A stretch of DNA of 26,014 bases from a bacterium (GTDB lineage: Bacteria > Zhuqueibacterota > Zhuqueibacteria > Zhuqueibacterales > Zhuqueibacteraceae): NCBI GenBank assembly GCA_044869275.1, contig JBIOXB010000049.1:1-26014 (forward strand), in the 5' to 3' direction. The position numbers were made by a program, and so were the translations under genes. The stretch's first letter is position 1. Every line of letters starts with the position of its first letter. The notes beneath the pieces were generated by a model, which saw only the letters and a list, made by a program, of their open reading frames with translations, ran no database searches and was not told the DNA's origin. Positions 1,946-24,093 of this stretch are shown piece by piece.

Positions 1946-3211
1946 TTATTGTACCAACACCAGTTTCTTCGTTTGCACTTCGCCTTCGCTCTCAAGCCGG
2001 TAAAAATAAGTCCCGCTGGGCACCATAAAGCCGTCGTTGTCGCGACCGTCCCAGATTACCTCATGTTCGCCGACCGGCATTTTGCCGGCACCTAACGTCC
2101 GGATCAACTGGCCAAGAGAATTGCTGATCCACAATTTGATCTCAGCCGTTTTTGCAAGGCGAAAACGTATCGTGGTCGCGGGATTGAAGGGATTCGGATA
2201 GTTTTGTTCCAAAGCAATTTGTGCCGGAAGGGTATGGGGGCTATCGGGCGTCGTTGTGAGTAGCTCCCCGACCTCGCTTCTCACAGCGAAGCTGTCCGCG
2301 ACGTTACCGGCGACGTCTTTGAAATAGAACGTGGCCAAATTCGGCTGGCCGTCCACATTGAAGACGCCGAACAAAGCGCCGTAATTGGCGTTCTGTGTGG
2401 AAGTGTAAATGCTCCCCCACCAATCGCCCGACTGTTCCTGGTTGCGAATGCCGTTGCCGCCCAGCCCGGAAACGAAAACGAATGTTTCGCCTTTGCTGAG
2501 GACTAAAGTGTCGGAGCGGCTGGCCACGGTTTGATTAATCATGTCGCTGAGCAGATGCGTGCGGCTGTAAGAATGCTCATGCGCCGTGGCGATAATCGCG
2601 CCGCCTTTGCGCGACTCTTCGTAAACTTCCCACCCGGCTTCGTCGCTCTTGCCGCCCACTTGCATAAGATGTTGATTTTTATGCCAGCTGCAAATGCTCC
2701 AGATCGAGTTGTCCGCTGCCAGTTGATCGCGAATGAAAGCATCGTGGCCTGTGCCCAAGACGTCTGGGGCGACTTGCACGATGAAAATGCCTTGATAATG
2801 CAACGCAGATTGTACTCCCAAATCCCCCTCCCAGGTTACACCGGCGCGCGTGAGCCGGTTTTTTATGTGCTCCTGATAACCGTTCACTCTGCTCCAGTGG
2901 CTTCTGTCATGATTTCCGATCGTGGCAAAATAGGGGAAGTCGGCGCCCAAGACGGTGGTAATGAGAGTGTCCCATGCCACAGGTTTGTTGCCATAGTCGA
3001 GATCGCCCTGGTGCATAACGGCGTGCGCGTTCTCCGCTTTGATCAGCTCCAGCACCGCCCGCGCGTTTTTCCCCGAGCCTTGGTCGCCAATAAAGGCGAT
3101 TTTAAGATTCGGCGGCGTTTGCGCGAGCAGCGTGCAGGCCGCCAGCCCAAACCAAGCAATTGTGGCTCTCACAATGGCCAGGATCAATCGGCTGAAAAGA
3201 CTCGTCTTCAT
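1946..3211 (-). CDS. Secreted calcineurin-like metallophosphoesterase with C-terminal FlgD-Ig/T9SS type A-like sorting domain
   Basis: Signal peptide from MKTSLFS (ATG 3211, GGGGAG RBS); GDQG, GDLDY, GNHD, AHEHSYSR motifs; C-terminal QNYPNPFNP...WDGRD...SGTYFY...KKLVLVQ. Confidence 0.88.
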   Translation of the reverse strand: MKTSLFSRLILAIVRATIAWFGLAACTLLAQTPPNLKIAFIGDQGSGKNARAVLELIKAENAHAVMHQGDLDYGNKPVAWDTLITTVLGADFPYFATIGNHDRSHWSRVNGYQEHIKNRLTRAGVTWEGDLGVQSALHYQGIFIVQVAPDVLGTGHDAFIRDQLAADNSIWSICSWHKNQHLMQVGGKSDEAGWEVYEESRKGGAIIATAHEHSYSRTHLLSDMINQTVASRSDTLVLSKGETFVFVSGLGGNGIRNQEQSGDWWGSIYTSTQNANYGALFGVFNVDGQPNLATFYFKDVAGNVADSFAVRSEVGELLTTTPDSPHTLPAQIALEQNYPNPFNPATTIRFRLAKTAEIKLWISNSLGQLIRTLGAGKMPVGEHEVIWDGRDNDGFMVPSGTYFYRLESEGEVQTKKLVLVQ

Positions 3212-3260
3212 GGTGCGCTCCCCTGAATGATTGAAAGCAGAAAAGCAATAACCAGCATCT

Positions 3261-3339
3261 GTCATTGCGAAGCAAAGCCTTGCCGGCTTTCAAATTCAGC
3301 CTAAACAGATTGTTACGTCGCTTCGCTCCCTGCCATGAC
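3261..3339. repeat. Degenerate GTCATTGCGA...TGAC palindromic (REP-like) repeat
   Basis: GTCATTGCGAAGCAAAGC...GATTGTTACGTCGCTTCGCTCCCTGCCATGAC resembles the widespread GTCATTGCGAG...GATTGCTTCGTCGCTTCGCTCCTCGCAATGAC repeat. Confidence 0.6.
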
Positions 3340-3835: not shown

Positions 3836-5230
3836 TTACTTCACCATCGGCAAGCCGTACTTCTTCGCTTTGCGATAAATCGTGGCGCGGCCGATGCCGA
3901 GTTTCTTGGCGGTTTGTGAAATGTTACCGCCGTTTTCCAAGAGCGCGTTGCGCAACGCTTCTTCTTCCAGCTTTTCGATCCAGCTCGAGAGCGTATTGTC
4001 GGACTCGTAGATTTTTTTCTCGCCGATGGCGCGCACGGTGTTGGGCAAATCTTTTGGGGTGATTTCCGGCCCGGTGGACAAAACCACGGCGCGCTCGATG
4101 GCATTCTCCAATTCGCGCACGTTGCCGGGCCAGTTGTAAGCCATCAGCAGTTCCAGCGCATCGGAAGAAATGTTTTCGACCTGCTTGTTTTCCTGGCGCG
4201 AGCATTTTTCGACGAAATGCGCGGCCAGCAGCGGGATGTCTTCGCGGCGCTCGCGCAGCGGCGGCAGCTTGATGGGAAAGACGGAAATGCGATAGAACAA
4301 ATCTTCGCGGAACTCGCCGTTACGCACGGCCTCTTCGAGATCTTTGTTGGTCGCGGAGATCACGCGCACGTCGATTTTGATCAGCTCGTTGCTGCCCACG
4401 CGTTCGAATTCGCGCTCTTGCAGAATGCGCAGCATTTTTGCCTGCGTGGCCGGGGTCATCAACCCGATTTCATCCAGAAAGATGCTGCCCCCCTCCGCCA
4501 CTTCGAATTTGCCCACACGCCGTCCGGTGGCACCGGTGAACGAGCCTTTCTCGTGGCCGAACAATTCGCTTTCCAGCAATGATTCCGGCAGCGCCGAACA
4601 GTTGACCGCGACAAAGGGCTTGCCGCTGCGCAGCGTATTGTGGTAATGAATCGCACGCGCGATGAGCTCTTTGCCCGTGCCGCTCTCGCCTTGTATCAAA
4701 ACCGTGACGTTGCTGTTCACCACTTTCTCGAGCGAGCGAAAGACTTCCTGCATGACGCCCGACTGCCCGATGATATTCTTGAACTGATAGCGCGTTTTCA
4801 GCTCCGAACGCAGCGAATCAATTTCCTGTTTGAGCGAGCTGGTGGTCAAAGCATTGCGCACGGTGACCAGCAAGCGGTCGCTGGGAAATGGCTTTTCGAT
4901 GAAGTCGAAAGCCCCGAGCTTCATCGCTTTGACCGCCTTTTCGATGGTGCCGTGCGCCGACATCATCACCACCGGAATATGTGCGAGCTCCTCGCGAATG
5001 CGCTTGATGGTTTCCAGGCCGTCGATTCCCGGCATTTGAATGTCGAGCAAAATCAAATCGGGCACAGCCTCGCGCAGTATTTTCAAACAGGCTTCCCCGC
5101 TATTGGCGGTCTCGACCGTGTATTCCTTCTTGAGGTTGATCTCGATCATCTTGCAAATGTTGCGATCGTCATCTACCACCAGAATGGAATATTTTTTCGC
5201 CCGCCGTTCCATGCTACTTTCTTCAGTCAT
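3836..5230 (-). CDS. Sigma54-dependent response regulator (NtrC/AtoC/ZraR family: REC-AAA+-HTH_8)
   Basis: REC (VVDDD, LDIQMP, KP), Walker A GESGTGKE, ESELFGHEKGSFTGA, WPGNVRELEN, Fis-type HTH; start may be 5212. Confidence 0.95.
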   Translation of the reverse strand: MTEESSMERRAKKYSILVVDDDRNICKMIEINLKKEYTVETANSGEACLKILREAVPDLILLDIQMPGIDGLETIKRIREELAHIPVVMMSAHGTIEKAVKAMKLGAFDFIEKPFPSDRLLVTVRNALTTSSLKQEIDSLRSELKTRYQFKNIIGQSGVMQEVFRSLEKVVNSNVTVLIQGESGTGKELIARAIHYHNTLRSGKPFVAVNCSALPESLLESELFGHEKGSFTGATGRRVGKFEVAEGGSIFLDEIGLMTPATQAKMLRILQEREFERVGSNELIKIDVRVISATNKDLEEAVRNGEFREDLFYRISVFPIKLPPLRERREDIPLLAAHFVEKCSRQENKQVENISSDALELLMAYNWPGNVRELENAIERAVVLSTGPEITPKDLPNTVRAIGEKKIYESDNTLSSWIEKLEEEALRNALLENGGNISQTAKKLGIGRATIYRKAKKYGLPMVK

Positions 5231-7538: not shown

Positions 7539-7677
7539 GCGCGCCGCAAAGTTGCTGTCGGTGTGCAAAAGTCACGCGCCGGGAGAATGATCTGCTTGCT
7601 TCTCCATACAATTCTTCAAAACCTGGTGGAAAATGGGGCATGCAATTTGTAAAATCATCCGCGCAAAGGCGCAACCT

Positions 7678-8058
7678 ATGAAACCAATTCTGCTTTTGCT
7701 TGCAACAATTCCCTGGGTTTGGCTGGGGTGTGCCGCTTCGGGCGGCTCCAGCGCACCGGCCTGGGAGCAAAAAATCGATCCGCGCTTGCGCGCCGAAATG
7801 CAGGGCCTGCGTGCGCAAGGAGCGCTACTCCAAGGCCTTCCAGTTCTCATCAAATTCAAAAGCCCGTTGTCCCCCGAACAGGAAAGTGAATTGAGAAAAA
7901 CCGGCGTGCGTGTGCTCGGCCAAGCCGGCGACGTCGCCACCGCCGTGGTTGCGCCGGAAGCAATTTCAGAATTGGCGAAAAGAGATTACGTAATTTACCT
8001 CGAAGCTTCGAAGGAACGAACTTTCAAGGCGCAACAGCATACAGGAGAACATCAATGA
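7678..8058 (+). CDS. Putative lipoprotein consisting of a subtilase-propeptide-like domain
   Basis: MKPILLLLATIPWVWLG-C lipobox-like signal; mature part aligns by eye with the prodomain of the downstream S8 peptidase; ATGA overlap with that gene. Confidence 0.8.
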   Translation: MKPILLLLATIPWVWLGCAASGGSSAPAWEQKIDPRLRAEMQGLRAQGALLQGLPVLIKFKSPLSPEQESELRKTGVRVLGQAGDVATAVVAPEAISELAKRDYVIYLEASKERTFKAQQHTGEHQ

Positions 8059-10322
8059 AGAAATGGTTCGTGAAAATGATCGCCGGTGCAGCCGGTTTGA
8101 TGCTGGCCACCACCGGATTCACCGGCGAATTGAGCCAGCACGCAGCCAGCAAACTCGACGCAAAACTAAGACTGCTGCTCACGCAGGGCCAGCTCGGAAC
8201 GGCGCTGGCCAAAAACAACAGTGCTGCTGTTGCGGAAAACGGCGCCTCCGTGCAGGTGTTGATCAAGACCACCGGCACCATGGCGGAGCTGCGGGCGCGC
8301 GGTGCGCAGATTATGGCAAGCACCGGCGACATCGCCACCGCAGTGTTGCCGGTTGCGGCTTTGGCAGAAATCGCCAGTCTGAACGAAGTCATTTTTATTG
8401 AATCCTCGAAGACATACAAATTTCGCAACGACGCCGGCCGCGTGCTCACGCGCGCAACCGACGTGCACGCGCAATTCAATTTCACCGGCAAGGGGGTGAT
8501 CGTCGGGGTGCTGGATACCGGCGTGGATTGGCGCCACGAGGATTTTCGCAAAACCAACGGCCAGACGCGCATCAAATACCTGTTGGATTTCAGCGTTCCC
8601 GGCGACACCAACGGCGACGGCCGCTTGGAGGGCTCGGGCCCGTACGGCGGCACGTTGTATTCGGAGGCGCAAATCAACGCTGCTTTGAATGGCCCGAGCA
8701 CGGTTACAGCAGCAGATCGCAATGGCCACGGCACGCACGTGACCGGCAGCGCGGCAGGTAATGGACGCGGAACGAGCAATGGCATTGCCGCGGGCACTTA
8801 TGCCGGCACCGCGCCGGAAGCGGACATCATCTTTGTAAAAAGCAGAAACGGGGATATCGGCAACATTCCGGATATTGACGCCCTCAATGCCGCCGTTTTC
8901 ATCGACAGCGTGGCAAAAGCGCTCGGCCAGCCTTATGTCATCAACCTCAGCTTTGGCGGCCACGAAGGTGCGCACGATGGCACCAGCCTGCAGGAACAGG
9001 CATTCGACAATTTGGTCGGCGCAGGCAAAAAAGGCAAAGCCATCGTGGTGGCCGCGGGAAACGAAGGCCAGGACAACATTCATGCCGGCGGCAGCATCAG
9101 CAGTTCTATCACGATCGATTTCAACGTTCCCACGTATACGGCAAGTGCGGGCGCGCAGAATGATTTTGTGCTGTTCGAGGGCTGGTACCCCGGCAATATC
9201 AATCTTAGTTATCGATTGACCGCACCCAACGGCACCAATTATGGGCCGGTGGCGAGCGGCGGTAACATTGGACAAGATACGCCCAACGGCGCCATTGTTA
9301 TCGACAACGCCGGCACTGCCAATCCGTTGAACAACAGCAAACAAGTCGTCATACAAATTTTCGACAATACGGCGAACAACAAGCCCGCGGCTGGCAATTG
9401 GAAGCTGACGATCACCGGCAACACCAATCGTTATGATTTGTGGCTGCACTCCAGCACGATGAGCGCCGTACTGACCACCAACGCCAGCGCCTCTCGTTTG
9501 GTCGCCATCCCTGGCACGGCTAAAAATGTCATCACCGTCGGTGCGTGGGTCAGCAAAAAAAGCTGGACCGATTTGGACAACAACCCGCTTTCGGTTCCTT
9601 CTGCCGTGGTGAACACCGCGGCCGGTTTTTCAAGTCCGGGGCCTTCACGCGATGGCCGCGTGAAGCCCGAGATTAGCGCGCCGGGGCAGATGATCGGATC
9701 AACGCTTTCGAACGAGGCGCGCCCCGGCGGCCCATACAGCATTTGGAATAGTCCGATTTCAAATTCTCCCAATGCCTTTATTTTGCGCGATAATCGCCAC
9801 GCCATCGGCAACGGCACCAGCTTCGCCGCGCCGCTCGTGGCCGGCGGCATCGCTCTGATGCTGCAAAGCAACCCCAATTTGGATGCCGTGCAGATCCGCA
9901 AGGCGTTGACCACGACCGCAAAAACCGACGGCTTTACCGGCGCGGTTCCAAACGACCAATGGGGCTACGGCAAAGCGGATTTCCTGGCGGCCTTGAACTA
10001 TGTCACTTCTGTTGAAGAGGATCCCGGATCCTCGACGCCGCCGCAGGCTTTTTCACTCTTGGCGAACTATCCCAATCCCTTCAATCCTGAAACGCAAATT
10101 GCATATGAAATTCCTCTTGCCGCGCGTGTGGAGATCGCGGTGTTCGACATGCTGGGCCGGCAAGTGCGCACGCTCCTGGCAGATCAGGCGACAGCCGGGC
10201 GCCACCAAATCATCTGGGATGGGCGGAACGATCAAGGGCAACTGTTGACCTCCGGCGTTTATGTATACCAGATGCGAGCGGGAGATTTTGCCGCCTCGAA
10301 AAAAATGGTGCTGTTGCGATAA
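8055..10322 (+). CDS. Secreted S8 family (subtilisin-like) serine peptidase with prodomain, inserted beta domain and FlgD-Ig/T9SS-like C-terminal domain
   Basis: GVLDTG (Asp), GHGTHV (His), AAGNEG (oxyanion Asn), GTSFAAP (Ser); AGGAG RBS; C-terminal NYPNPFNP...WDGRN...SGVYVY...KKMVLLR. Confidence 0.95.
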   Translation: MKKWFVKMIAGAAGLMLATTGFTGELSQHAASKLDAKLRLLLTQGQLGTALAKNNSAAVAENGASVQVLIKTTGTMAELRARGAQIMASTGDIATAVLPVAALAEIASLNEVIFIESSKTYKFRNDAGRVLTRATDVHAQFNFTGKGVIVGVLDTGVDWRHEDFRKTNGQTRIKYLLDFSVPGDTNGDGRLEGSGPYGGTLYSEAQINAALNGPSTVTAADRNGHGTHVTGSAAGNGRGTSNGIAAGTYAGTAPEADIIFVKSRNGDIGNIPDIDALNAAVFIDSVAKALGQPYVINLSFGGHEGAHDGTSLQEQAFDNLVGAGKKGKAIVVAAGNEGQDNIHAGGSISSSITIDFNVPTYTASAGAQNDFVLFEGWYPGNINLSYRLTAPNGTNYGPVASGGNIGQDTPNGAIVIDNAGTANPLNNSKQVVIQIFDNTANNKPAAGNWKLTITGNTNRYDLWLHSSTMSAVLTTNASASRLVAIPGTAKNVITVGAWVSKKSWTDLDNNPLSVPSAVVNTAAGFSSPGPSRDGRVKPEISAPGQMIGSTLSNEARPGGPYSIWNSPISNSPNAFILRDNRHAIGNGTSFAAPLVAGGIALMLQSNPNLDAVQIRKALTTTAKTDGFTGAVPNDQWGYGKADFLAALNYVTSVEEDPGSSTPPQAFSLLANYPNPFNPETQIAYEIPLAARVEIAVFDMLGRQVRTLLADQATAGRHQIIWDGRNDQGQLLTSGVYVYQMRAGDFAASKKMVLLR

Positions 10323-10339
10323 GGTCATTTGGCCTGAAC

Positions 10340-10364
10340 CACGAAAGACACGAAATACACGAAA
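10340..10364 (+). repeat. Short tandem repeat with 9-bp period
   Basis: CACGAAA-GA-CACGAAA-TA-CACGAAA. Confidence 0.7.
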
Positions 10365-10377
10365 CCAGGGAGAGCTC

Positions 10378-10897: not shown

Positions 10898-13315
10898 ATG
10901 AAAATCTCCCACGCCTGGCGAACTGGTTTGAGTTTAGTCCTGGTGCTTGGCTTGATGGCGCAGGCTGGCCTGGCTTTGCCCAAATCCGACACCGGTCCAA
11001 AGAACGACTGGCCCAATTGGCGGGGCAGAAATTACGACGGTGTCGCGCCAACCAAAAACGTCTTCAATTTTGGCAAAGGGTATGGCTTGAAGGCCGCGTG
11101 GAAGAAAAAGCTGGGCTCGGGCTATGCCAGCATCTCCATAACCGAGGGCCGCGCTTTCACCATGTTTTCGGATAGTACCTTCGACCATCTCATCGCCTTC
11201 GATGCCAAAAGCGGCGCTGAACTTTGGCGGCATAAAATCGATTCCACCTATATCGGCCATGACGGCTCGCATAACGGTCCAATCTCCACCCCGCTTGTGG
11301 ATGGTGACAAGGTTTATGGCCTCGGCCCCAAAGGCAAATTATTCGCGCTCGAGGTGAAAAGCGGCAAAAAACTTTGGGAGACTTCCCTGGTCAAAGACCA
11401 TCACGCGCTCGCGCCCTTTTGGGGATTCACCACTTCTCCCCTGGTTTACGGCGAGGTCTTGATGCTCGAAACCGGCGGAACAAAATCAAACGCGATTTCC
11501 GGTTTCGACAAGAACAGCGGCAAATTACTGTGGACGGCCGGCACGGATACCGTCAGTTATCAATCTCCCATTTTCGCGTCGATTACGGGACAGACGCATT
11601 TGCTTTTTGCCGGCAACAAGTATATTTATGGTCTTGACCACCGGTCAGGGAAGAAGTTTTGGGAATTCAATCACAAAAGCCAAAACCAAAGCTTCACGCC
11701 CGTGGTTACGGAATCGAACCGGATCATGCTCATGGGCAACAATGAGTCGATGCTGCTTGAAGTCAGCAAAGCAGGCGACAACTTTCAAGCTCGTGAGCTG
11801 TGGAAAAGCCGCGAAATAAAACAAACACTCGCGCCCACGGTTTATCATGAGGGGTATTTGTACGGTTATAGCGGCGTCTTTCTGACGTGCGTCAACGCGG
11901 CGACGGGCGAGAGAGCTTGGCGCTCGCGTCCACCCGGCGATGGCTTTGTCATTTTGGTGGATGATCATTTGGTGATCATGACCAAGACCGGCGAGCTCCA
12001 TATCGCCGCCGCGAGTCCCACCGGTTATGAAGAAAAGGCCAACTTCAAGCTCTTTGAGGGATTGACCTGGACCCCTCCGAGCTTTGCCGAGGGCCGCATC
12101 TACGCGCGCAGCTTACGGGAGATTGCCAGCGTCGAAATCGCACCGGTGCCGCAACTCCTGGCGGTGACCCGAACCGTGCCGCAGCCCGTCGCGCCCAACT
12201 CGGCGTTCGCCCAATCCGTCAGGCAAATTGAAAGCGCTCAAGATAAGAATAGCAAAATTGAAGAATTCATGAAGTCGCAGCCCTCTTTTCCGATCATCGA
12301 GGGCGACAAGTTGGCGCATTTCGTGTATCGTGGCCAGGTCGAGGATTTGGCGATCATGGGGGACATGTTTGATCTCAGGCAACAGTTCGAGATGTTTCGC
12401 GCGCCCGGCACGGATTTTTATTACTACACCATCGCCGTCGAACCGGATGCCCGCTTGAATTATCGCTTCGTCAGAAATTTCGAGGAGCCGATTACAGACC
12501 CGCTCAATCCGGTGAGCGCGGATGGATTCTTCGGCCGGTTTTCGGAGCTGGCGATGCCCAAGTTCAAGCGACCCACGCACCTCAATGAACCGAGTGGTGC
12601 GCGCGGAACGCTAGACAGCTTGCAATTCGAAAGCAAGGTATTCTCCGGCGCGCGCGCGCTGCAAGTTTATCTTCCGAATGGCTATGCCAATTCGGGCAAG
12701 CGCTATCCCGTCGTCTACGTCAATTACGGCCAGCAGGCTTTGCGCATGGGCAAAATGGCCAACACCCTCGACAATCTCATCGGCAACACCATTGAGCCGG
12801 TGATCGCCGTTTTTATTTACGCGCCAAATAGTTTCGCCGAATATGCGCGCGCGCAGCGGGATAAATATGCGGAAATGGTGACGCAGGAGCTCGTTCCCTT
12901 TGTCGACGCCAAATATCGCACGCTGGCCAAGCCGGAAGCCAGAGCCGTCATGGGCGCCGACGAGGGCGGCTATGCTGCTTTCTACGCCACCTTCAAGTAT
13001 CCCGGCACTTTCGCTCATGTCGGTGGCCAATCGACACACCTGTTTCCGTCGGAGGCCGAGCCGCTCAAAAACATGATAAAGGCCTCCAAGAAACTCGATC
13101 TGAATATATATATGGACTGGGGCACTTACGACCATCGCACCACCGGCAGCTTCGATTGGGCCGAATTCAATATCGCTTTCGCCAAAATGCTGGAAGAGCA
13201 GGGTTACAAGATCAACGGCGGGCAAGTACACGATGGCTTCGATTGGGCGAGCTGGAGAAGCCGTACCGATCGTGTGCTCGAAAGTTTTTTTTCACTGGCG
13301 AAGCAGGTCAACTAG
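10898..13315 (+). CDS. Exported PQQ-type (BamB-like) beta-propeller fused to an enterochelin-esterase-like alpha/beta-hydrolase domain
   Basis: GGAGGAG RBS, signal peptide; DWPNWRG and repeated G..LW blades; C-terminal VYLPNGY...RYPVVY, ELVPFVDAKYRT, AVMGADEGG, DWASWR. Confidence 0.88.
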   Translation: MKISHAWRTGLSLVLVLGLMAQAGLALPKSDTGPKNDWPNWRGRNYDGVAPTKNVFNFGKGYGLKAAWKKKLGSGYASISITEGRAFTMFSDSTFDHLIAFDAKSGAELWRHKIDSTYIGHDGSHNGPISTPLVDGDKVYGLGPKGKLFALEVKSGKKLWETSLVKDHHALAPFWGFTTSPLVYGEVLMLETGGTKSNAISGFDKNSGKLLWTAGTDTVSYQSPIFASITGQTHLLFAGNKYIYGLDHRSGKKFWEFNHKSQNQSFTPVVTESNRIMLMGNNESMLLEVSKAGDNFQARELWKSREIKQTLAPTVYHEGYLYGYSGVFLTCVNAATGERAWRSRPPGDGFVILVDDHLVIMTKTGELHIAAASPTGYEEKANFKLFEGLTWTPPSFAEGRIYARSLREIASVEIAPVPQLLAVTRTVPQPVAPNSAFAQSVRQIESAQDKNSKIEEFMKSQPSFPIIEGDKLAHFVYRGQVEDLAIMGDMFDLRQQFEMFRAPGTDFYYYTIAVEPDARLNYRFVRNFEEPITDPLNPVSADGFFGRFSELAMPKFKRPTHLNEPSGARGTLDSLQFESKVFSGARALQVYLPNGYANSGKRYPVVYVNYGQQALRMGKMANTLDNLIGNTIEPVIAVFIYAPNSFAEYARAQRDKYAEMVTQELVPFVDAKYRTLAKPEARAVMGADEGGYAAFYATFKYPGTFAHVGGQSTHLFPSEAEPLKNMIKASKKLDLNIYMDWGTYDHRTTGSFDWAEFNIAFAKMLEEQGYKINGGQVHDGFDWASWRSRTDRVLESFFSLAKQVN

Positions 13316-14884: not shown

Positions 14885-15211
14885 ATGCCGAACATGCGGA
14901 GCGTAGAATTTCATCGTATGTTGGAAGACAATAATTCAATTCGTGCAAGATTTGACTTGGATCGAGGTCGAGTTGTCAAGTTTGTAGTGCAACTCGAATG
15001 CCGATTCGATGAAGATTGGGTAGCCGTTGTCAGATATGACACCGCCCATGGTTTTGCTCACTGCGACAGACTTCATCCGTACGAGCCAGAGGCAAAAATC
15101 CAAATGGCCACGCAAGATTTTAACGAAGCATTGACTTTCGCAATTCAAGATTTGGTTGATAAGTGCGGAGATTATCGAAAGAGGTATGAACAATGGCTAA
15201 AAAAGAATTGA
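14885..15211 (+). CDS. Small hypothetical protein with RYDTAHG.AH motif (DUF7718/TumE-like), putative toxin
   Basis: FVVQLE...W..VVRYDTAHGFAHCD motif; overlaps the next gene by 19 nt. Confidence 0.7.
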   Translation: MPNMRSVEFHRMLEDNNSIRARFDLDRGRVVKFVVQLECRFDEDWVAVVRYDTAHGFAHCDRLHPYEPEAKIQMATQDFNEALTFAIQDLVDKCGDYRKRYEQWLKKN

Positions 15212-15492
15212 TCCAAACTGCCCCAACCGATGTCTTAGAGCGCAACCTCACTCTGACCGGAGAAGTGATGCGCTTTTTGCTCGAACAGCCGGAAGTATTT
15301 AATTCTCTGCCGGCCAATTTTGAACTGGTGATCTTGCCCGAAGATGACCCCGAGATGGGCCTGTATAACTTGAAGCTCCTGAATACTTACGGGAGTGAAG
15401 GCAAGCCGGTTGTTTTTGCAAGAATCAAATCCAGCCGCGAGGCTTTCACCAAGCAAGATCCGCCTCGTCTTTACGCACCGATTGCGGCCTAA
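15193..15492 (+). CDS. DUF5647-like protein, putative antitoxin
   Basis: RNL.L..E..RFLLEQPE....LP.N..LVILPEDDPE...YN motif; GAGGT RBS. Confidence 0.7.
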   Translation: MAKKELIQTAPTDVLERNLTLTGEVMRFLLEQPEVFNSLPANFELVILPEDDPEMGLYNLKLLNTYGSEGKPVVFARIKSSREAFTKQDPPRLYAPIAA

Positions 15493-16731: not shown

Positions 16732-18078
16732 GTGTCCATTTCCTGTCTGCGGAAGATGCTTCTTGCCGGGAGCGTGCTCGTGGTGGCGGTTTCGGGCCAT
16801 ACGCAGCAGATTTTCGAGTCCCTGAAAAAGCCAACGAAAGAAGATCGCTCCACTTCCAAACGCCAGCCCATTGAGCCGCCCCAAATCGAGTTCGGGCAAA
16901 CAGCCTTGAGCAACTTGCAGGCCGTCGAAACGGCCGTTGATCCCAACACCTACCAGGTCGGACCCGGGGACGTTTTCACCATCAGTTTTTGGGGGCCGGT
17001 GTTTCCCGAGCCCTTGTTGGTTGTGCCGGTGACGCCGGAAGGCGAGCTCATCATTCCCACGGTGGGCGGTCTGCCTGTGGGCGGGCAAACGCTGGCGCAG
17101 GCGCAAGCCGCGGTGAGCCGCGCGTGTGCGGAGAAATACAACGCCAACATGGTCCGCGCCACCGCGCATTTGAGTCAAGTGCGCCTGGTGCGTGTTCATG
17201 TTTATGGAGAAGTCAAGGACCCCGGCGCATTCATCGCGAGCGCGGCGGAGCGCGTTTCCGCCTGCCTGCAAAGGGCCGGCGGCTTGACAGAATGGGCTGA
17301 CGACAGCCAAATCGAAATTCGTTATGCGGACAGCACCAGCCGCGTACTGGACCTGACGCGCTTGTACCAACAGGGCGATTTGGCGCAGGATCCCTATTTA
17401 CAGGGTGGGGAGGTGATTTACGTACTCCGTTTGCCGTTGACGCACGATGTCGTTTTCGTAGAGGGCGCGGTGCCGCGCCCCGGGCCGCATCGCTGGCTGG
17501 CGAATGAATCCCTGCCGGATTTTCTGCATCGCGTCAAAGCGCTCGACCGCCAAACCGATTTGACCGAAGTCGTCTTGCTGCGGCAGCATCAAGCGCCGCT
17601 GCACCTGAGCTTCTTTGAAAACGTTGCCGAGCCTTCCAACGGCTCGACTATGGGCAATGGCGATGCCGTGCATGGCAACCATGGCACAAGCTCCACAGCC
17701 TCTTCCGTGGCCGCGCAAACGTTGCAATTGCAGGCCGGCGATCGCATCGTGGTGGCGGAATTGAAAGAATTTGTCTATGTGCATGGCGCGGTTAGGGTTC
17801 CCGGCAGCTATCCGTTTGTCACCGGCTACAAAGTCGCCGATTACATTGGACTCGCGGGCGGCACCATGGAGACCGCCAACCTCAAAAGCGCGAAAGTCTT
17901 TCATCGCGAAAACGGCGCCAGCGAAAAAGGGGCGGACAAAGAAGTCCAGCGTGGCGATATCATTGCCATTCCCACCTCCACGCGAAAAACTTTCGGCGAT
18001 TATCTCACGTTTTTGACGCAAGCCGCGACCATTACGCTGGCGGTGATTGCCGCCGTCAACGCTGTAAATGCAAACTGA
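16732..18078 (+). CDS. SLBB-domain polysaccharide export protein (Wza/KpsD-like), paralogue 1
   Basis: VDPNTYQVGPGD...VTPEGELIIPTVG poly_export domain; repeated V.G.V..PG SLBB motifs; C-terminal hydrophobic helix; GGAGGA RBS with GTG start. Confidence 0.9.
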   Translation: MSISCLRKMLLAGSVLVVAVSGHTQQIFESLKKPTKEDRSTSKRQPIEPPQIEFGQTALSNLQAVETAVDPNTYQVGPGDVFTISFWGPVFPEPLLVVPVTPEGELIIPTVGGLPVGGQTLAQAQAAVSRACAEKYNANMVRATAHLSQVRLVRVHVYGEVKDPGAFIASAAERVSACLQRAGGLTEWADDSQIEIRYADSTSRVLDLTRLYQQGDLAQDPYLQGGEVIYVLRLPLTHDVVFVEGAVPRPGPHRWLANESLPDFLHRVKALDRQTDLTEVVLLRQHQAPLHLSFFENVAEPSNGSTMGNGDAVHGNHGTSSTASSVAAQTLQLQAGDRIVVAELKEFVYVHGAVRVPGSYPFVTGYKVADYIGLAGGTMETANLKSAKVFHRENGASEKGADKEVQRGDIIAIPTSTRKTFGDYLTFLTQAATITLAVIAAVNAVNAN

Positions 18079-18087
18079 AGAATGAAC

Positions 18088-18116
18088 TTGACTAACTCGG
18101 CACCTGGCGCTATATT
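18088..18116 (+). promoter_or_regulatory. Internal sigma70-type promoter
   Basis: TTGACT (18088-18093), 17 bp, TATATT (18111-18116). Confidence 0.55.
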
Positions 18117-18197
18117 GTCGCGTTTCGAGGCGATAAAACAAGGACGGCAACTATCAGGAGTTTCCAACATGATGGTTAAAAGGAGCGGAGGATTTCA

Positions 18198-19454
18198 TTG
18201 TCGCGTCGTGCGCCAGCCGCAGTTTTCGTATTTGGATTCGCAATCTTAATTTTTCACAACTCCTACAGCCAGGACTTCAAAGCCAAGCCGCCCTCAGCCC
18301 CGCAAATCGACGAAGAGTTGCTCGCCAAACAGTTGCAAAAGCGGAACGAGCAGGATTTCACGCAACAAGCCATTGAAGGCGTCATCGATCCGGCCACGTA
18401 CGTGGTGGGACCGGGAGACGTTCTGAAAATCAATTTTTGGGGGCCAACCGCCGATGATCTCGGGCTTTCCGTTGTGGTCACTCCCGAAGGGAAAATCATC
18501 ATCCCGACGGTCGGTGTGGTGGAGGCGGATCGCAAAACGTTGCAGCAGGTGCAGGAGGAAACGCGGCGACTCTGCGCCACCAAGTACGATTCTCGCAACG
18601 TCAAGGTGACCATCCATCTCACTAAGCTGCGCACCGTGCGGGCTTATATTTTCGGCGAAGTCAAGGGCTCAGGCGTGTACACCGCAACTTCTATCGGCCG
18701 CGTTTCCTATTACCTGAGCGAGGCTAAGGGATTTACCGAATGGGCGGACGAGCGTCACGTGCAATTGCGGCATTTGCACGGCGGCGTGGATACGCTGGAT
18801 ATGACGCGGCTGTATGAATATGGCGACATTACGCAGGACCCATACGTGCAAGGTGGCGACATGATCTACGTGCCGCGCATCGAGCTGACCGACCAAACCG
18901 TTTTCGTCGAGGGGGACATGCTCAAGCCCGGGCCGCACAAAATCATGGAAGGCGAAACCCTGTTGGAGTTTTTGCACCGCGTCAAGGCGCTGACACGCAC
19001 CTCAGATTTGAACGGCATTGTGCTCGTGCGCGGGAAGCAGCCGCCGCTGCATGTCAATTTTCTCGCGAACGGCGCGGCGAACGCCGATCTGCATCAAATG
19101 CCGTTGCAGCACGGCGACCGCATCTTCGTGCCGCCGATCAAGGAATTCGTTTACGTGCACGGCGCGGTGAAGAGCCCGGGAAGTTATCCGTTCGTGGTGG
19201 GTTATAAGGCCGGCGATTATGCCGGCCTGGCCGGCGGCACCGTGGAATCTGGAAACTTAAGAAGCGTAAGAGTGATTCACCAGGAAACGGGCAAGAGTGA
19301 AGCAGGCCCGGACAAGGAAGTGCAGCGCGGGGACACGGTCGTCGTGCCGGTATCCGCACGCACCACCTTCGGACAATTCTTGACGTTTGGCGCGCAGACG
19401 GGAACCATCGTGCTCGCTGTCATCGCCGCAGTGAACGCGCTCAATACCAATTGA
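18198..19454 (+). CDS. SLBB-domain polysaccharide export protein, paralogue 2
   Basis: IDPATYVVGPGD...VTPEGKIIIPTVG; SLBB repeats; colinear with paralogue 1; GGAGGA RBS with TTG start. Confidence 0.9.
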   Translation: MSRRAPAAVFVFGFAILIFHNSYSQDFKAKPPSAPQIDEELLAKQLQKRNEQDFTQQAIEGVIDPATYVVGPGDVLKINFWGPTADDLGLSVVVTPEGKIIIPTVGVVEADRKTLQQVQEETRRLCATKYDSRNVKVTIHLTKLRTVRAYIFGEVKGSGVYTATSIGRVSYYLSEAKGFTEWADERHVQLRHLHGGVDTLDMTRLYEYGDITQDPYVQGGDMIYVPRIELTDQTVFVEGDMLKPGPHKIMEGETLLEFLHRVKALTRTSDLNGIVLVRGKQPPLHVNFLANGAANADLHQMPLQHGDRIFVPPIKEFVYVHGAVKSPGSYPFVVGYKAGDYAGLAGGTVESGNLRSVRVIHQETGKSEAGPDKEVQRGDTVVVPVSARTTFGQFLTFGAQTGTIVLAVIAAVNALNTN

Positions 19455-20767
19455 ACCCTCGTGAGAATAAAAATATGTTGCGAGACGGGCACATCAATGG
19501 CAATTCCAATTCGAATGATCCGCTCAATGGCCAGCAGGTGCAAAGCCATTTTTTTGACTATTTGTATGTTTTGGTCAAGCGGCGCAAAATCATTCTCAGT
19601 GCCATTTTAGTGACCGCGGTGGCCACCGCTGTCGTCACCTTGTTCATGCCCAACTGGTACGCGGCCACGGCCTCGGTGCTGCCTCCCAAGCGGCCCGGCG
19701 GCTTGTTGAGCATGCTGGAAGGCGGCTTCTCTTCGCTGCTGCGCAGCCTGCCCGGCATGGGCGTGAAATTCGGCTCCTCGCAAGAAACCTACAGCTACCT
19801 CGCGATTTTGAATAGCCGGAACGCTATGGAACGCGTGGTGCAAAAATTCGATCTCATCAAGGTTTATGACACGCGCAAACACTCGTTGGATGACACCATT
19901 AAAGAATTGCGCGAAAACTGCGAGTTCGATTTCGCCACCGAAGGCAACATCACCATCACGGTATTTGACAAAGACCGCCAGCGTGCTGCGGACATGGCGA
20001 ATTATTTCGTTGAAATTCTCAATGAAATGAGCGTGCAGCTCGGCACCAAGGAGGCGCGCAACAACCGCGAATTCATCGAACGGCGTTATCACCAAAACAA
20101 AGAAGATTTGAAGGCCGCGGAAGACAGCATGAAAGCCTTCCAGCAGAAATACGGCATCTACACACTGGCGGAGCAGACCGAAAGCGCGATCAAAGGCGCG
20201 GCCGAGCTGAAAGCTGAACAGGCAGCCCGGGAAATCGAGCTGGGCATCGCGCTCAAGAGTCTGGGCGAGAACAATCCCAAGACCCAGGAATTGCAGTTGC
20301 AGCTCGCCGCCATCAACAACAAGCTGCGCGAGCTCAAATTCGGCACTGCGGATTGGTACGGCGAAAGATCGCTGAATCTGTTCGTGCCGTTCAAAGATGT
20401 GCCCGAGCTGGGATTGGAATATCTGCGGCGCTATCGCGAGCTGCAAATCCAAAACAAGATGTTGGAATTTCTGCTGCCGCTTTATGAGCAGGCCAAAATC
20501 GACGAGCAAAAAGACATGCCCGTGGTATTGTCGCTAGACAAAGCCACGCCCCCGGAACGCAAGAAGAAACCGTTCCGCACTCTCATTGTTTTGATTTTCA
20601 CCTCGCTCGCCGCCATGTTCAGCGCCGCGTGGGCGTTCGTGCAAGAGCTTTATGATCGCGAGAAGGAATACAATCCCAAGATAACCGCGCTCGCGGAAGA
20701 GCTCAAACGGGGAGCCTTGTATCGAAGAGTCATGCAACGCCGCAAGACCCCGATGGAAAAAACCTGA
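19451..20767 (+). CDS. Polysaccharide co-polymerase / chain-length determinant (Wzz/GumC-like, no kinase domain)
   Basis: Two TM segments flanking a long coiled coil; P.WYAATASVLP and LDKATPPERKKKP motifs. Confidence 0.9.
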   Translation: MNPRENKNMLRDGHINGNSNSNDPLNGQQVQSHFFDYLYVLVKRRKIILSAILVTAVATAVVTLFMPNWYAATASVLPPKRPGGLLSMLEGGFSSLLRSLPGMGVKFGSSQETYSYLAILNSRNAMERVVQKFDLIKVYDTRKHSLDDTIKELRENCEFDFATEGNITITVFDKDRQRAADMANYFVEILNEMSVQLGTKEARNNREFIERRYHQNKEDLKAAEDSMKAFQQKYGIYTLAEQTESAIKGAAELKAEQAAREIELGIALKSLGENNPKTQELQLQLAAINNKLRELKFGTADWYGERSLNLFVPFKDVPELGLEYLRRYRELQIQNKMLEFLLPLYEQAKIDEQKDMPVVLSLDKATPPERKKKPFRTLIVLIFTSLAAMFSAAWAFVQELYDREKEYNPKITALAEELKRGALYRRVMQRRKTPMEKT

Positions 20768-20923
20768 CGGCTGTTGCACGTGAGGCGGTTTGCAATTGCA
20801 TCAGCACCGTGTGCTCAGCGGCGTTGCATGGAGTTCGTGAGATTCTGCAGCAACAGGATGATTTCCTTCCTATGAATTATCTCCTTGTATGCAAAAGCCG
20901 TAACGCCTCTGGGAGCCTGCAAC

Positions 20924-22684
20924 ATGATCTCTCCGGCCCGGTTTCGCGCAGAGCCCGCCGTAATTCTTCTTTTGCTTTTGGCGCCAGTTTTCCTGTTCAG
21001 CCAAAACGACCGCTTTGAAATCGTTTATATGGCTGAAACCAAATATGTCAAAGATCGCGTGTGGTTGAACAACTTGAAAACCGATTGGCAGGCGACTGGC
21101 GTGAATCTGCGCCTTATGTGGGCGGAAGTTGAGAACGAGTCCCATGTTCTCAATTGGACCGAAATTGACGCCGCCCTGCGCGCTCTGGCAAAAAACAACC
21201 TGGATATTTACATACGAGTCAGCTTGATTTTTACCCGTGACCAATGGTTTGCAGACTCCGGGTATTATACTGCGGACGACTTTCATCGCCGTTGGAACGG
21301 GGATTATTATTTGAATCGTTATCCGCAACAGCTCGATGCTCCCGGCGAGCACGGCAAAATGTTGACTTTTATTTCACTCAATGCGCGATCCAGGGTGAAA
21401 CAATTCTATCATGAAGTGGTTGTGCATTTGGAGCAGCAACCCGTCGACATCAAAAAAAGAATTCGGCTCATTGTGCCGGCGCTCACTCCGGATGATGAAT
21501 CGGAATATCCTTCGCACGGCTGGATTGATGGAAAAGATGCAGCAGAGATGACGGGCTACGCCAAGCCCGAGCAGGAGGCCTTCGTCAAATTTTTACAGGC
21601 GAAATATGATAACGACCGCAAAATGCTCAACCTCGCCTGGGAATCGAATTTCACAGCGATCAACACGGCTCAGATTCAGATTGCGAAGTATAACTGGCAG
21701 AAACAACAGGGGTTCGAGGATCCCCCCTATCAATACGCCAAGGGCAGAAAAGACTGGATCGATTTTAAGACGGAGGCGCTCAAGAAGTTTTTTGAGGAGC
21801 TGGCGGTCATCACCCACGAGGCGAATTTCAAATTCGGGCTGCAATTTGGCTCACTATATGATAACGGCATCACGTATCGCGGATTCTATGACCCCACTTC
21901 TTTGCTGGAAGAGATCGATTATTTGATTACCGGTGAAATTCTCGAATATGAGCCAAACTTCGAGTTTTCCGCGGATTATTCCCGCAGTTTGTGCAAATAC
22001 TGGGATTGGAAGAATTCCAGAGCTGCGGGCCAGAAGATCAAATTTGCCACTGAAACCAATTGGCCCGAGTATAACCATCATACTCCCCAGCTCTTATGCG
22101 CATCGTGGACGCGACAGGTTTGCGCTTTCTACGAAAGAGGCGCCGCCGCGCTTTTTGTCTCGCACTGGGGAACGACAGATGCCGGCGAGGGCGCCAATGT
22201 TCCTGCGCGCGTCAAAAACGGCAAACTCAAAACTCCGTATGCCCAGTGGGCCAAGACGCTCAAGGCATATAAAGGCGCCCCCGTGCAAAACATTATCAAC
22301 GACTATGCCGCGCATTTAAGCTGTGAGCAAAGCCTTTACTTCCGATGTGACTCGGGTTGCGCCGGCAGCACCGACTTTTTCTACAACAATGGCTTTCAGG
22401 TGGCACAAAATCCCATCCAATACGAATTTCCATTCACCCGCTTTGTACGGTCAAAAGCATCTGGCCAGAACCTCGTTTCTGCGGAAGAAAGAAATGACAT
22501 CGTGACAAATTATATGTTGATTCAATCGCCGGCATATCTCACGAGCAACTATAAAAAGCTCCGGCTCACCACCACCAGCTCAATTCTCCCGAAGGCGGCG
22601 AATCAGAATATGCAGCGTAATGAAGTGAAAAACATGATCATGCCCAATAACGCCTCTTTGCGTGCGACGAAACTGGTGGAATAA
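20924..22684 (+). CDS. Exported glycoside hydrolase-like protein (GH42/beta-galactosidase-like TIM barrel)
   Basis: GGGAG RBS, signal peptide; WAEVE...NW..ID, AFVKFLQAKY....LNLAWESNF, DWIDF and FATE motifs typical of GH42-like enzymes. Confidence 0.65.
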   Translation: MISPARFRAEPAVILLLLLAPVFLFSQNDRFEIVYMAETKYVKDRVWLNNLKTDWQATGVNLRLMWAEVENESHVLNWTEIDAALRALAKNNLDIYIRVSLIFTRDQWFADSGYYTADDFHRRWNGDYYLNRYPQQLDAPGEHGKMLTFISLNARSRVKQFYHEVVVHLEQQPVDIKKRIRLIVPALTPDDESEYPSHGWIDGKDAAEMTGYAKPEQEAFVKFLQAKYDNDRKMLNLAWESNFTAINTAQIQIAKYNWQKQQGFEDPPYQYAKGRKDWIDFKTEALKKFFEELAVITHEANFKFGLQFGSLYDNGITYRGFYDPTSLLEEIDYLITGEILEYEPNFEFSADYSRSLCKYWDWKNSRAAGQKIKFATETNWPEYNHHTPQLLCASWTRQVCAFYERGAAALFVSHWGTTDAGEGANVPARVKNGKLKTPYAQWAKTLKAYKGAPVQNIINDYAAHLSCEQSLYFRCDSGCAGSTDFFYNNGFQVAQNPIQYEFPFTRFVRSKASGQNLVSAEERNDIVTNYMLIQSPAYLTSNYKKLRLTTTSSILPKAANQNMQRNEVKNMIMPNNASLRATKLVE

Positions 22685-22702
22685 TCCGGCAATTGACGTC
22701 TC

Positions 22703-24034
22703 ATGAATATTCATCCCTTGATTCCTGCGTGCTGCGGTCTTGCCGGCGTATTCGTCGGGCGCTTTCTCTTTGGCCGCTGGTTCAATCATTTGACGATCTA
22801 TTCGTTGATTTGGGGCGCCGGTCTGGCATTCTTCGAGTTGAAGCTGATCGATTATCAAGCTTTGGACACGGAAGTCTGGATGATGATCGGCTATGCCTGG
22901 CTCGCATTTGGAGCGGGAGCGGTGACTCTGGTGATCGCTCGAGCGGCAATCGACGCCTCGCGCGGCTCCACCGTGACGATCCTGCCCATCCGCAATGCCA
23001 CTTCGGAAAAGCGAGTTTTCACGTTTACGATTGTGGCATTATCAGCCATTGCTTTGATCTCCACTCTGCAGCGCTGGCTGGTTTTGTTGAACATGTTCGG
23101 CAGTATCACCGGCGTCTTGATCAACGGTTACACAATTTATCGCATGCGAATCGACGGCGATACTCCGGGCACAATTCCCTACCTGAATTCTTTCGCCTTG
23201 GCAGCCATCTTTCTCAGCGGATTGTACAGTGCGCGCTCGGGCAAAATCAAACTTATCGCCTTGCTGCCTCTGCTCATCATCATCATCGACGACGTCGCCA
23301 TGGCCGGCCGCGCGAAGATGCTCATGGGAGTGGTTCTCTTCATCAGCGCCTATTTTCTTTCCAAGCTAAAGCCAGTACAGGCCACAGCGGTCCGGACCAC
23401 GAGCAAATGGAAATGGGTGTTGACATTCGGCTTGATGGTGGCGCTTCTGCTGGTCGCTGCGGAATTTGTCCGAAGTTATCGCGGGGCCTACGAGCGCTTT
23501 TACGGTGCCTCCAAGGAATTGAGCAAGCTCGAACGCAACACTTTCATCACGCCTTCGATTTACTTGTATCTCAGTTCACATGTAGGCGTATTCAACGCCT
23601 ATTGGAAAGCTGGCGGCGAGCATTACTTTCCCGCTTCCAATACCTTTGCCCCGGTTTTCAGAATTCTTTCAAAGATTGGACTGGGGGACCCCGTGCCGCA
23701 TTTCACCAAGTTTTACAACACGCCGGTAAGCTCGAACACGGGCACCTACCTGCGTGAGCTGCACGCCGATTTTGGCATTGCCGGAATACTCATCGCGCCT
23801 TATGCTCTGGGCTGGGCATGTACAGTGCTCTGGTTTAAAGTCAGAGGCCGGTCCGGAATGGCATCGATCGCGGTGCTCGCACATTTCTACGTGATTGTCG
23901 TATTCTCATTTTTATATCAAATCACACGGGTGGGAGAATGGTTCGTGAGCTTCGCCATCTCTTTCTTGGCAAGCGCCTTCATCGGCCACTATTGTCGCAT
24001 GCGCGCCGTGGAGCTAACCCAACCTCCAGCCTGA
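22703..24034 (+). CDS. wzy: O-antigen/oligosaccharide repeat-unit polymerase
   Basis: About 10-11 TM segments; SNTGTYLRELHADFG motif; located next to the flippase. Confidence 0.8.
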   Translation: MNIHPLIPACCGLAGVFVGRFLFGRWFNHLTIYSLIWGAGLAFFELKLIDYQALDTEVWMMIGYAWLAFGAGAVTLVIARAAIDASRGSTVTILPIRNATSEKRVFTFTIVALSAIALISTLQRWLVLLNMFGSITGVLINGYTIYRMRIDGDTPGTIPYLNSFALAAIFLSGLYSARSGKIKLIALLPLLIIIIDDVAMAGRAKMLMGVVLFISAYFLSKLKPVQATAVRTTSKWKWVLTFGLMVALLLVAAEFVRSYRGAYERFYGASKELSKLERNTFITPSIYLYLSSHVGVFNAYWKAGGEHYFPASNTFAPVFRILSKIGLGDPVPHFTKFYNTPVSSNTGTYLRELHADFGIAGILIAPYALGWACTVLWFKVRGRSGMASIAVLAHFYVIVVFSFLYQITRVGEWFVSFAISFLASAFIGHYCRMRAVELTQPPA

Positions 24035-24093
24035 AGAATCCGCATCGGCATGAACTGCGCTAGTGGCACGCGCTCAACGAGATCGTTCCCTTC

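Follow-up and report, generated by a model that had tools for sequence, protein, structure and literature searches.

A stand-alone subtilase prodomain with a predicted lipid anchor, encoded next to a CspB-like protease, as a candidate cognate inhibitor in the Zhuqueibacterota

The stretch of DNA analysed here (hereafter the window) comprises 26,014 nucleotides of a bacterium of the Zhuqueibacteraceae (Zhuqueibacterota; GenBank assembly GCA_044869275.1, contig JBIOXB010000049.1, positions 1 to 26,014 of the forward strand), and its subject is a two-gene unit in which a 126-residue open reading frame (ORF) lies directly upstream of the gene for a CspB-like subtilase (peptidase family S8) bearing a type 9 secretion system (T9SS) sorting domain. 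Judged by sequence comparison, the small ORF specifies a paralogue of the neighbouring subtilase's prodomain that is of ancient origin and has been inherited separately, and we posit that its product is probably a membrane-anchored, I9-type cognate inhibitor of that protease, with a predicted lipid anchor. A first-pass annotation had proposed a protease and cognate-inhibitor system at this site, built on a duplicate of the protease's own prodomain. The features of the pair are as follows.

7665..7669, forward strand: AAAGG, possible ribosome-binding site of the small ORF (putative, from sequence)
7678..8058, forward strand: 126-residue ORF for a stand-alone, prodomain-like predicted lipoprotein, without a Pfam or NCBIfam family
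7678..7731, forward strand: predicted lipoprotein signal peptide, residues 1-17, plus Cys18, the Cys being invariant after a hydrophobic stretch
7759..8028, forward strand: predicted I9/CspB-type prodomain fold, residues ~28-117, with a tail to the predicted P1 (K117 or A118), from AlphaFold, Foldseek and VIA
8043..8047, forward strand: AGGAG, putative ribosome-binding site of the protease, within the small ORF (from sequence)
8055..10322, forward strand: CspB-like S8 protease, 755 residues, with signal peptide, its own prodomain, jellyroll insert and T9SS C-terminal domain
8142..8426, forward strand: the protease's own prodomain, residues ~30-124, with predicted autocleavage at R124/N125 (+/- one residue)
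8514..9821, forward strand: span of the catalytic triad, D154 (8514), H225 (8727) and S589 (9819)
10068..10310, forward strand: T9SS type A sorting domain, residues 672-752 (TIGR04183, 35.6 bits, cut-off 23)

Evolutionarily, the small protein is homologous to the prodomain of its neighbour. BLASTP aligned it with the protease at E 4e-10 (40% identity over 48 residues), its Smith-Waterman score against the protease was 103, whereas 2000 shuffles averaged 33 and peaked at 66, and a profile-profile comparison of 24 small proteins with 16 peptidases reached a probability of 99.2% (E 8e-20) across 122 columns covering peptidase residues 1-134. These results confirm a homology that the first-pass annotation had read by eye from short matches to the peptidase N-terminus, every quoted one of which is in the sequence. 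At the DNA level, the similarity between the two genes amounts to a single 34-base local match. The protein had no Pfam match at E 0.1 and no NCBIfam family, an NCBIfam scan of 11 of its homologues returned three weak sub-cut-off matches only, and the small-protein profile found chance matches only among PDB sequences (E 0.8-1); an atlas listing places a CspB_prodomain cluster second for the small protein, with a score of 0.93, as a lead only.

The relationship is an old one. The proposal of a duplicated own prodomain stands as far as homology and an equivalent fold go, and fails as regards a close copy: when 49 prodomains were ranked against each of 49 small proteins, only 4 had their cognate prodomain at the top (median rank 10), and the sequences thus give no sign of cognate specificity. 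A single branch separates free copies from prodomains in a tree built from 20 orthologous pairs over 84 columns (Shimodaira-Hasegawa-like approximate likelihood-ratio test, SH-aLRT, 92). A window-specific or recent tandem duplication in the lineage was rejected on the same tree (approximately unbiased test on joining the window's two domains, p-AU 0.0004), so that calling the small protein a copy of the protease's own prodomain holds good only if an old paralogue, passed down together with the protease, is meant. A wider tree of 117 rows needs five label changes, with two groups of copies joining their cognate prodomains (support 86 and 93); further independent duplications of the prodomain are thus possible, with long branches making this tree unsure. 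Small proteins and prodomains are similarly conserved (mean identity 38% versus 35%), and their pairwise identities co-vary (r 0.71 over 27 related pairs, which are not independent).

Structurally, the small protein is predicted to have an alpha/beta propeptide fold matching the propeptides of subtilisin and CspB. Its AlphaFold model has a predicted local distance difference test score (pLDDT) of 85-96 over residues 31-110, and with this model Foldseek ranked subtilase prosegments first (E 0.009-0.05). In VIA the top 24 rows were all subtilase pro-regions (Z 6.7-10.9), among them Tk-SP (Z 10.9, root-mean-square deviation (rmsd) 4.6, 86 aligned), CspB (Z 7.0, rmsd 3.5, 86 aligned) and BPN' (Z 6.7); POIA1 scored Z 5.7, and unrelated ferredoxin-like folds ranked behind the pro-regions at Z 6.4 and below (NikR and S6 rows, Z 5.3-6.4). 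A likeness in fold to the prodomain, implicit in the first-pass annotation, is thereby supported. At strand positions L57, K59, V86, T88, Y107, E109 and S111, the most frequent residue types agree between 49 small proteins and 45 prodomains. At the N-terminus, all 24 aligned homologues keep Cys18 behind a hydrophobic stretch, which supports as a prediction the lipoprotein signal noted earlier, and the residue before the Cys is G, A or S in 37 of the 49 lipobox-flagged copies described below. At the other end, the C-terminal tail is long enough to reach P1 by alignment (register +/- one); with the protease's R124/N125 autocleavage taken from the alignment to CspB, the predicted P1 of the small protein is K117, the structural registers allowing +/- one residue. 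Among 149 representatives, the predicted P1 is the last residue in 38, and in 100 the end falls 0-3 residues beyond it. Pro occupies P1' or P2' in 14 of 51 tail-extended small proteins and in none of 54 prodomains, where P2' is Asp in 51 cases; such a Pro would hinder cleavage of the small protein.

Several observations establish the small ORF as a gene in its own right. The first-pass annotation had described a 126-residue ORF with a lipobox-like W-L-G-C, here located at residues 15-18, and an ATGA overlap at 8055-8058, and both are present: the TGA of the small ORF (8056-8058) overlaps the ATG of the protease (8055-8057), which, together with the AGGAG inside the small ORF, suggests translational coupling of the two genes. 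Comparison with a same-genus orthologue, where the 119 ungapped codons comprise 48 identical, 27 with synonymous and 44 with non-synonymous differences, argues that the small ORF is real. It has its own start and stop, its frame differs from that of the S8 gene and the same layout is found across dozens of genomes; its product is a separate one, not cut from the protease precursor. The recurrence of the two-ORF layout, and a signal peptide and prodomain on the protease itself, led to the rejection of a split gene or a frameshifted single ORF. An alternative in-frame start, the ATG at 7633, is disfavoured because it overlaps a conserved promoter-like motif, so that 7678 is the likely start.

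Functionally, the partner is a CspB-like subtilase. It carries Pfam Peptidase_S8, with D154, H225 and S589 invariant in 16 of 16 aligned peptidases and all three triad motifs in 48 of 49 full-length partner S8s. Among solved proteins the protease matches clostridial CspB best (sequence E 5e-30; predicted structure E 2e-30), with its residue 137 aligned to residue 13 of the mature CspB chain; in the protease model (mean pLDDT 70) a beta-rich block at residues 343-467, aligned with CspB, forms a jellyroll insert within the S8 domain. Pfam CspB_prodomain matched residues 32-119 at 22.3 bits, below the cut-off of 25, and the protease did not pass the curated Csp family models (NF040809, 107.9 bits versus a cut-off of 1250; NF040808, 87.4 versus 675). 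The host phylum is, to our knowledge, not known to form spores. The clostridial Csp proteases (CspB, PDB 4I0W), as described in PMC3567191, thus provide the best match in sequence and structure and share the jellyroll insert and the longer type of prodomain, whereas the partner, unlike CspB, has a signal peptide and a T9SS domain; no free prodomain gene is mentioned in the available text of that source. SprA and PorU are encoded in the genome, along with 20 PorV-family matches that exceed the curated cut-off, and these together with the sorting domain make T9SS export of the protease likely, in agreement with the T9SS-secreted protease of the first-pass annotation. The 20 PorV-family matches constitute an unusually large set of T9SS shuttle-like proteins, and the window holds, at 1946-3265 on the reverse strand, a metallophosphoesterase bearing a T9SS-type C-terminal domain. 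An imperfect short repeat (CCACGAAAGACACGAAATACACGAAACC) stands right after the protease stop, at 10339-10367.

Taxonomically, candidate division KSB1 is the label carried by relatives of the small protein and by the best named peptidase locus. A single-protein search gave matches in 23 of 61 related genomes, and a profile search in 72 of 167 genomes of the phylum, protease prodomains counted too. Sixty loci were fetched, mainly around the best short-ORF matches, which with the window made 63 rows; after one truncated contig-end frame was dropped, there were 62 free copies from KSB1 phylum loci. The 49 with a flagged lipobox comprise 43 directly upstream of an S8 gene, 4 at a contig edge and 2 without an adjacent S8, so that among lipobox-bearing copies with enough flank the proportion is 43 of 45. 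The 13 unflagged copies comprise 7 signal-less ones after a signal-less S8, 3 signal-less orphans, 2 with a more distant Cys and 1 apparently truncated. In a sample of 151 Ignavibacteria-class genomes, 16 matched, 14 of which hold 15 free copies, all 15 beside an S8 (13 upstream, of which one is represented only by a cut prodomain, and 2 downstream); tandem domains occur in two copies. Of the remaining two genomes, one had an S8 alone and one was a false match. The gene pair therefore recurs across related genomes, a check that the first-pass annotation had proposed.

The module also varies in form. Seven loci have a signal-less copy behind a signal-less S8 without a sorting domain, as does one actinobacterial record; in this form (L049:4720-6826, L050 and L118-L122, of genus g2, and L135:1546-4521, an Acidimicrobiales record), a CspB-like S8 without signal peptide or sorting domain is followed by a free prodomain of 85-100 residues. 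Tandem double-prodomain forms, lipoprotein or soluble, occur at L213:1018-1761 and L215:1099-1761, where they adjoin an S8 on its upstream side, and in P0058, P0069, P0089 and P0134, and alternating arrays occur at L089 and L090 (S8, copy, S8; copy, S8, copy, S8). More widely, a profile search of 1.84 billion representatives gave 795 matches at E 0.001, and among the best 150 of these 149 are at most 220 residues long and 103 have a lipobox-like Cys under a rule-based definition. A set of 80 distant S8 loci, drawn from many phyla, yielded a detectable free copy within 3 kb at only 3 of them, namely a KSB1, an Ignavibacteriaceae and a signal-less Acidimicrobiales copy; the module is therefore not a general feature of S8s. 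Twenty further S8 loci chosen for having no nearby short match included 18 without an upstream copy and 2 with one; three of the 18 hold near-orthologues of the protease, from family f3, in whose genomes (89-97% complete) the single profile match is the prodomain itself, which indicates that the protease can exist without the partner. In its own genome, the small-protein profile matches only the neighbour's prodomain but misses the nine other S8-like ORFs. A distinct clade of CspB-like S8s of the T9SS type and without a free prodomain (L229, L234-L236, L238, L239, L241 and L245) lies directly downstream of a XerD-like recombinase gene, recognised by eye.

Several known systems resemble this pair in part. 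The Aeromonas subtilase ASP is reportedly propeptide-deficient and served by an adjacent small gene, ORF2, as an external chaperone; the present pair is like it in having a small gene beside a subtilase gene, and unlike it in that the partner keeps its own prodomain. Stand-alone, propeptide-like inhibitors of MEROPS family I9 (Pleurotus POIA1, the yeast proteinase B inhibitor and Arabidopsis SPI-1) inhibit subtilases, and TgMIC5 and Plasmodium SUB1-ProM are similar to them, according to PMC6993865. With the I9 inhibitors the small protein shares an independent small gene product and, by prediction, the propeptide fold, and with SUB1-ProM, which adjoins subtilase genes, it shares its position; the examples in that source come from eukaryotes and, as described there, show no significant resemblance to propeptides in sequence, whereas the present protein is bacterial, homologous to its neighbour's prodomain, apparently translationally coupled and predicted to be lipidated. 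In Tannerella forsythia, potempins PotA-E pair with KLIKK peptidases, PotC inhibits the S8 mirolase, and the potempins are described as protecting the envelope without aiding maturation (PMC9890683). Their 98-132-residue lipoprotein ORFs, which either overlap a T9SS peptidase gene or lie no more than 5 bp before it, show the layout found here, but they are OB-fold or eight-stranded beta-barrels that inhibit with a loop, in contrast to the predicted propeptide fold of a paralogue of the partner's prodomain, and the partner's C-terminus here reads KMVLLR in place of KLIKK. Differing in fold and partner, the small protein is not a potempin, and the first-pass annotation was right to set potempins apart as a different fold (PMC9890683). 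Finally, Streptococcus pyogenes Spi is a propeptide analogue encoded next to SpeB and acts as its inhibitor (PMC2873492, PMC3462683), as proposed here; SpeB, unlike the present partner, is a C10 cysteine protease and Spi is thought to be cytoplasmic, and the signal-less S8 pairs are the nearer analogue. A literature search, with most subscription journals and supplements outside it, found no description of a bacterial stand-alone subtilase prodomain.

From a mechanistic perspective, the dispensability of the copy, the full prodomain of the partners, the kept tail and the match in compartment fit best with an anchored, self-protective inhibitor, the reading we favour. Both genes would be co-expressed, and the protease would be exported by Sec and the T9SS, fold on its own prodomain and cleave it around R124; after loss of that prodomain, the beta-sheet of the anchored copy would dock on the catalytic domain, with the copy's C-terminal tail entering the active site in the fashion of I9 propeptides. 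Protease that becomes active in the periplasm or at the surface would thereby be caught and silenced at the membrane, and released enzyme would stay active. Several points weigh against this. CspB keeps its own prodomain bound after cleavage (PMC3567191), and if the partner protease did the same, a second inhibitor would seem redundant. At least five copies lack an S8 directly beside them (L086:4104-4481, L087:3963-4349, L104:2-445 and 4618-4956, and L125:3736-4356), the residue before the Cys is other than G, A or S in 12 of 49 lipoboxes, and the small proteins are no closer to the cognate prodomain than to those of relatives, as their median rank indicates. The window's own copy has no Pro after P1, and no single Foldseek match to its model reached E 0.001.

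The first-pass annotation had named an inhibitor, a trans-chaperone and a tether side by side; inhibition is favoured among these, and an obligate trans-chaperone is disfavoured. Propeptides are foldases. A trans-acting folding chaperone, assisting the protease in the periplasm before T9SS export in the style of an external propeptide, would accord with this, with the complementation in trans reported for the CspB prodomain (PMC3567191) and with the stoichiometric co-expression suggested by the ATGA overlap. It is nonetheless quite unlikely: partner proteases keep their full own prodomain and near-orthologues from family f3 are among the 18 of 20 further S8 loci without an upstream copy, which argues against an obligate chaperone, and PotA, as described in PMC9890683, had no effect on maturation. 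Alternatively, the anchored copy could replace a retained prodomain by exchange and hold latent enzyme on cells or vesicles for release, with inhibition a by-product of storage. Stable complexes with the prodomain are known for CspB-type enzymes (PMC3567191), mature karilysin is retained on cells and vesicles by PotA (PMC9890683), and a K-(D/E)2 motif resembling an export signal (PMC5080379) follows the Cys in 5 of 49 copies, with 13 more net acidic there. Such a surface tether is fairly unlikely, given that this motif is absent from the window's copy and from all 11 of its family, that the genome's PorU offers a separate route for surface attachment of T9SS cargo and that signal-less copies beside signal-less S8s cannot tether anything to a membrane.

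A broader role in defence, against the genome's other S8s or competitors' proteases and with the linkage mostly a relic of duplication, would suit the lack of cognate-specific similarity, the orphan copies, the nine further S8-like ORFs and the occasional inhibition of heterologous subtilisins by propeptides (PMC6993865); we consider it very unlikely, because the linkage is kept across two phyla and on either side of the protease gene and because the identities of small proteins and prodomains co-vary, with the reservation on independence given above. That the fold has been recruited for a task outside protease biology, or is a decaying remnant of duplication, is most improbable: the ferredoxin-like core is common, as the NikR and S6 rows illustrate, and one copy (L101) appears to be without a signal peptide, but the open frame, invariant Cys and tail are kept across dozens of genomes and the small proteins are as conserved as the prodomains.

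Beyond the window, it is possible, and we put it forward tentatively, that a large unnamed prokaryotic family of free subtilase prodomains serves as a modular immunity gene for CspB-like proteases, each copy being addressed to the compartment of its enzyme (lipid-anchored with T9SS proteases, signal-less with cytoplasmic ones, sometimes in tandem) and, on the envelope, capturing the enzyme by prodomain exchange, so as to silence and store it. The cognate-inhibitor reading of the window's pair would by itself bring together the known themes of stand-alone I9 inhibitors and of potempin-style gene pairs. If correct, it would add bacterial members to a class of stand-alone I9 inhibitors whose examples in PMC6993865 are all eukaryotic, reveal a second, independent solution (a reused prodomain versus a beta-barrel) for protecting the envelope from T9SS-secreted proteases, suggest a function for hundreds of unannotated small proteins, and supply a natural series of inhibitor and enzyme pairs in which to follow the change from foldase prodomain to stable inhibitor. 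The surprise is limited, since the logic is already known from potempins, Spi and SUB1-ProM.

Upstream of the pair lies a candidate promoter.

7636..7650, forward strand: sigma-54-like -24/-12 motif, predicted promoter of the two-gene unit (GG at 7637-7638; GT, not GC, at 7649-7650)

By the sigma-54 -24/-12 consensus, such a motif lies 83-96 nucleotides before the Cys codon in all six loci of genera g1 and g4, compared with a genome background of 0.013 per 224 nucleotides at an equal mismatch level, and in 5 of the remaining 43 loci the match is looser or lies at a different position. The genome has rpoN, and we infer that the motif drives the two-gene unit. Scans for sigma-70 promoters and terminators gave results at chance level only. 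An NtrC-type sigma-54 response regulator is encoded at 3836-5230 on the reverse strand, 2.4 kb from the motif. Transcript data were not used as evidence of expression: a soil metatranscriptome (two runs, one study) held 0.06 of the words, four near-identical 151-nucleotide soil RNA records fall in 7677-8175 at depth 2, one of them spanning the gene junction, and two further soil RNA records lie elsewhere in a 20-kb stretch; carry-over of DNA is possible.

Elsewhere in the window, an 805-residue fusion of a PQQ-like beta-propeller with an enterochelin-esterase-like domain is encoded at 10898-13315 (forward strand), and overlapping DUF7718 and DUF5647 genes at 14885-15492 (forward strand) follow serS and resemble a small two-gene module, which at a guess could be a toxin-antitoxin pair. 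A polysaccharide export and polymerase cluster at 16732-25527 contains, at 20885-22684 (forward strand), a 599-residue ORF without a Pfam or NCBIfam match.

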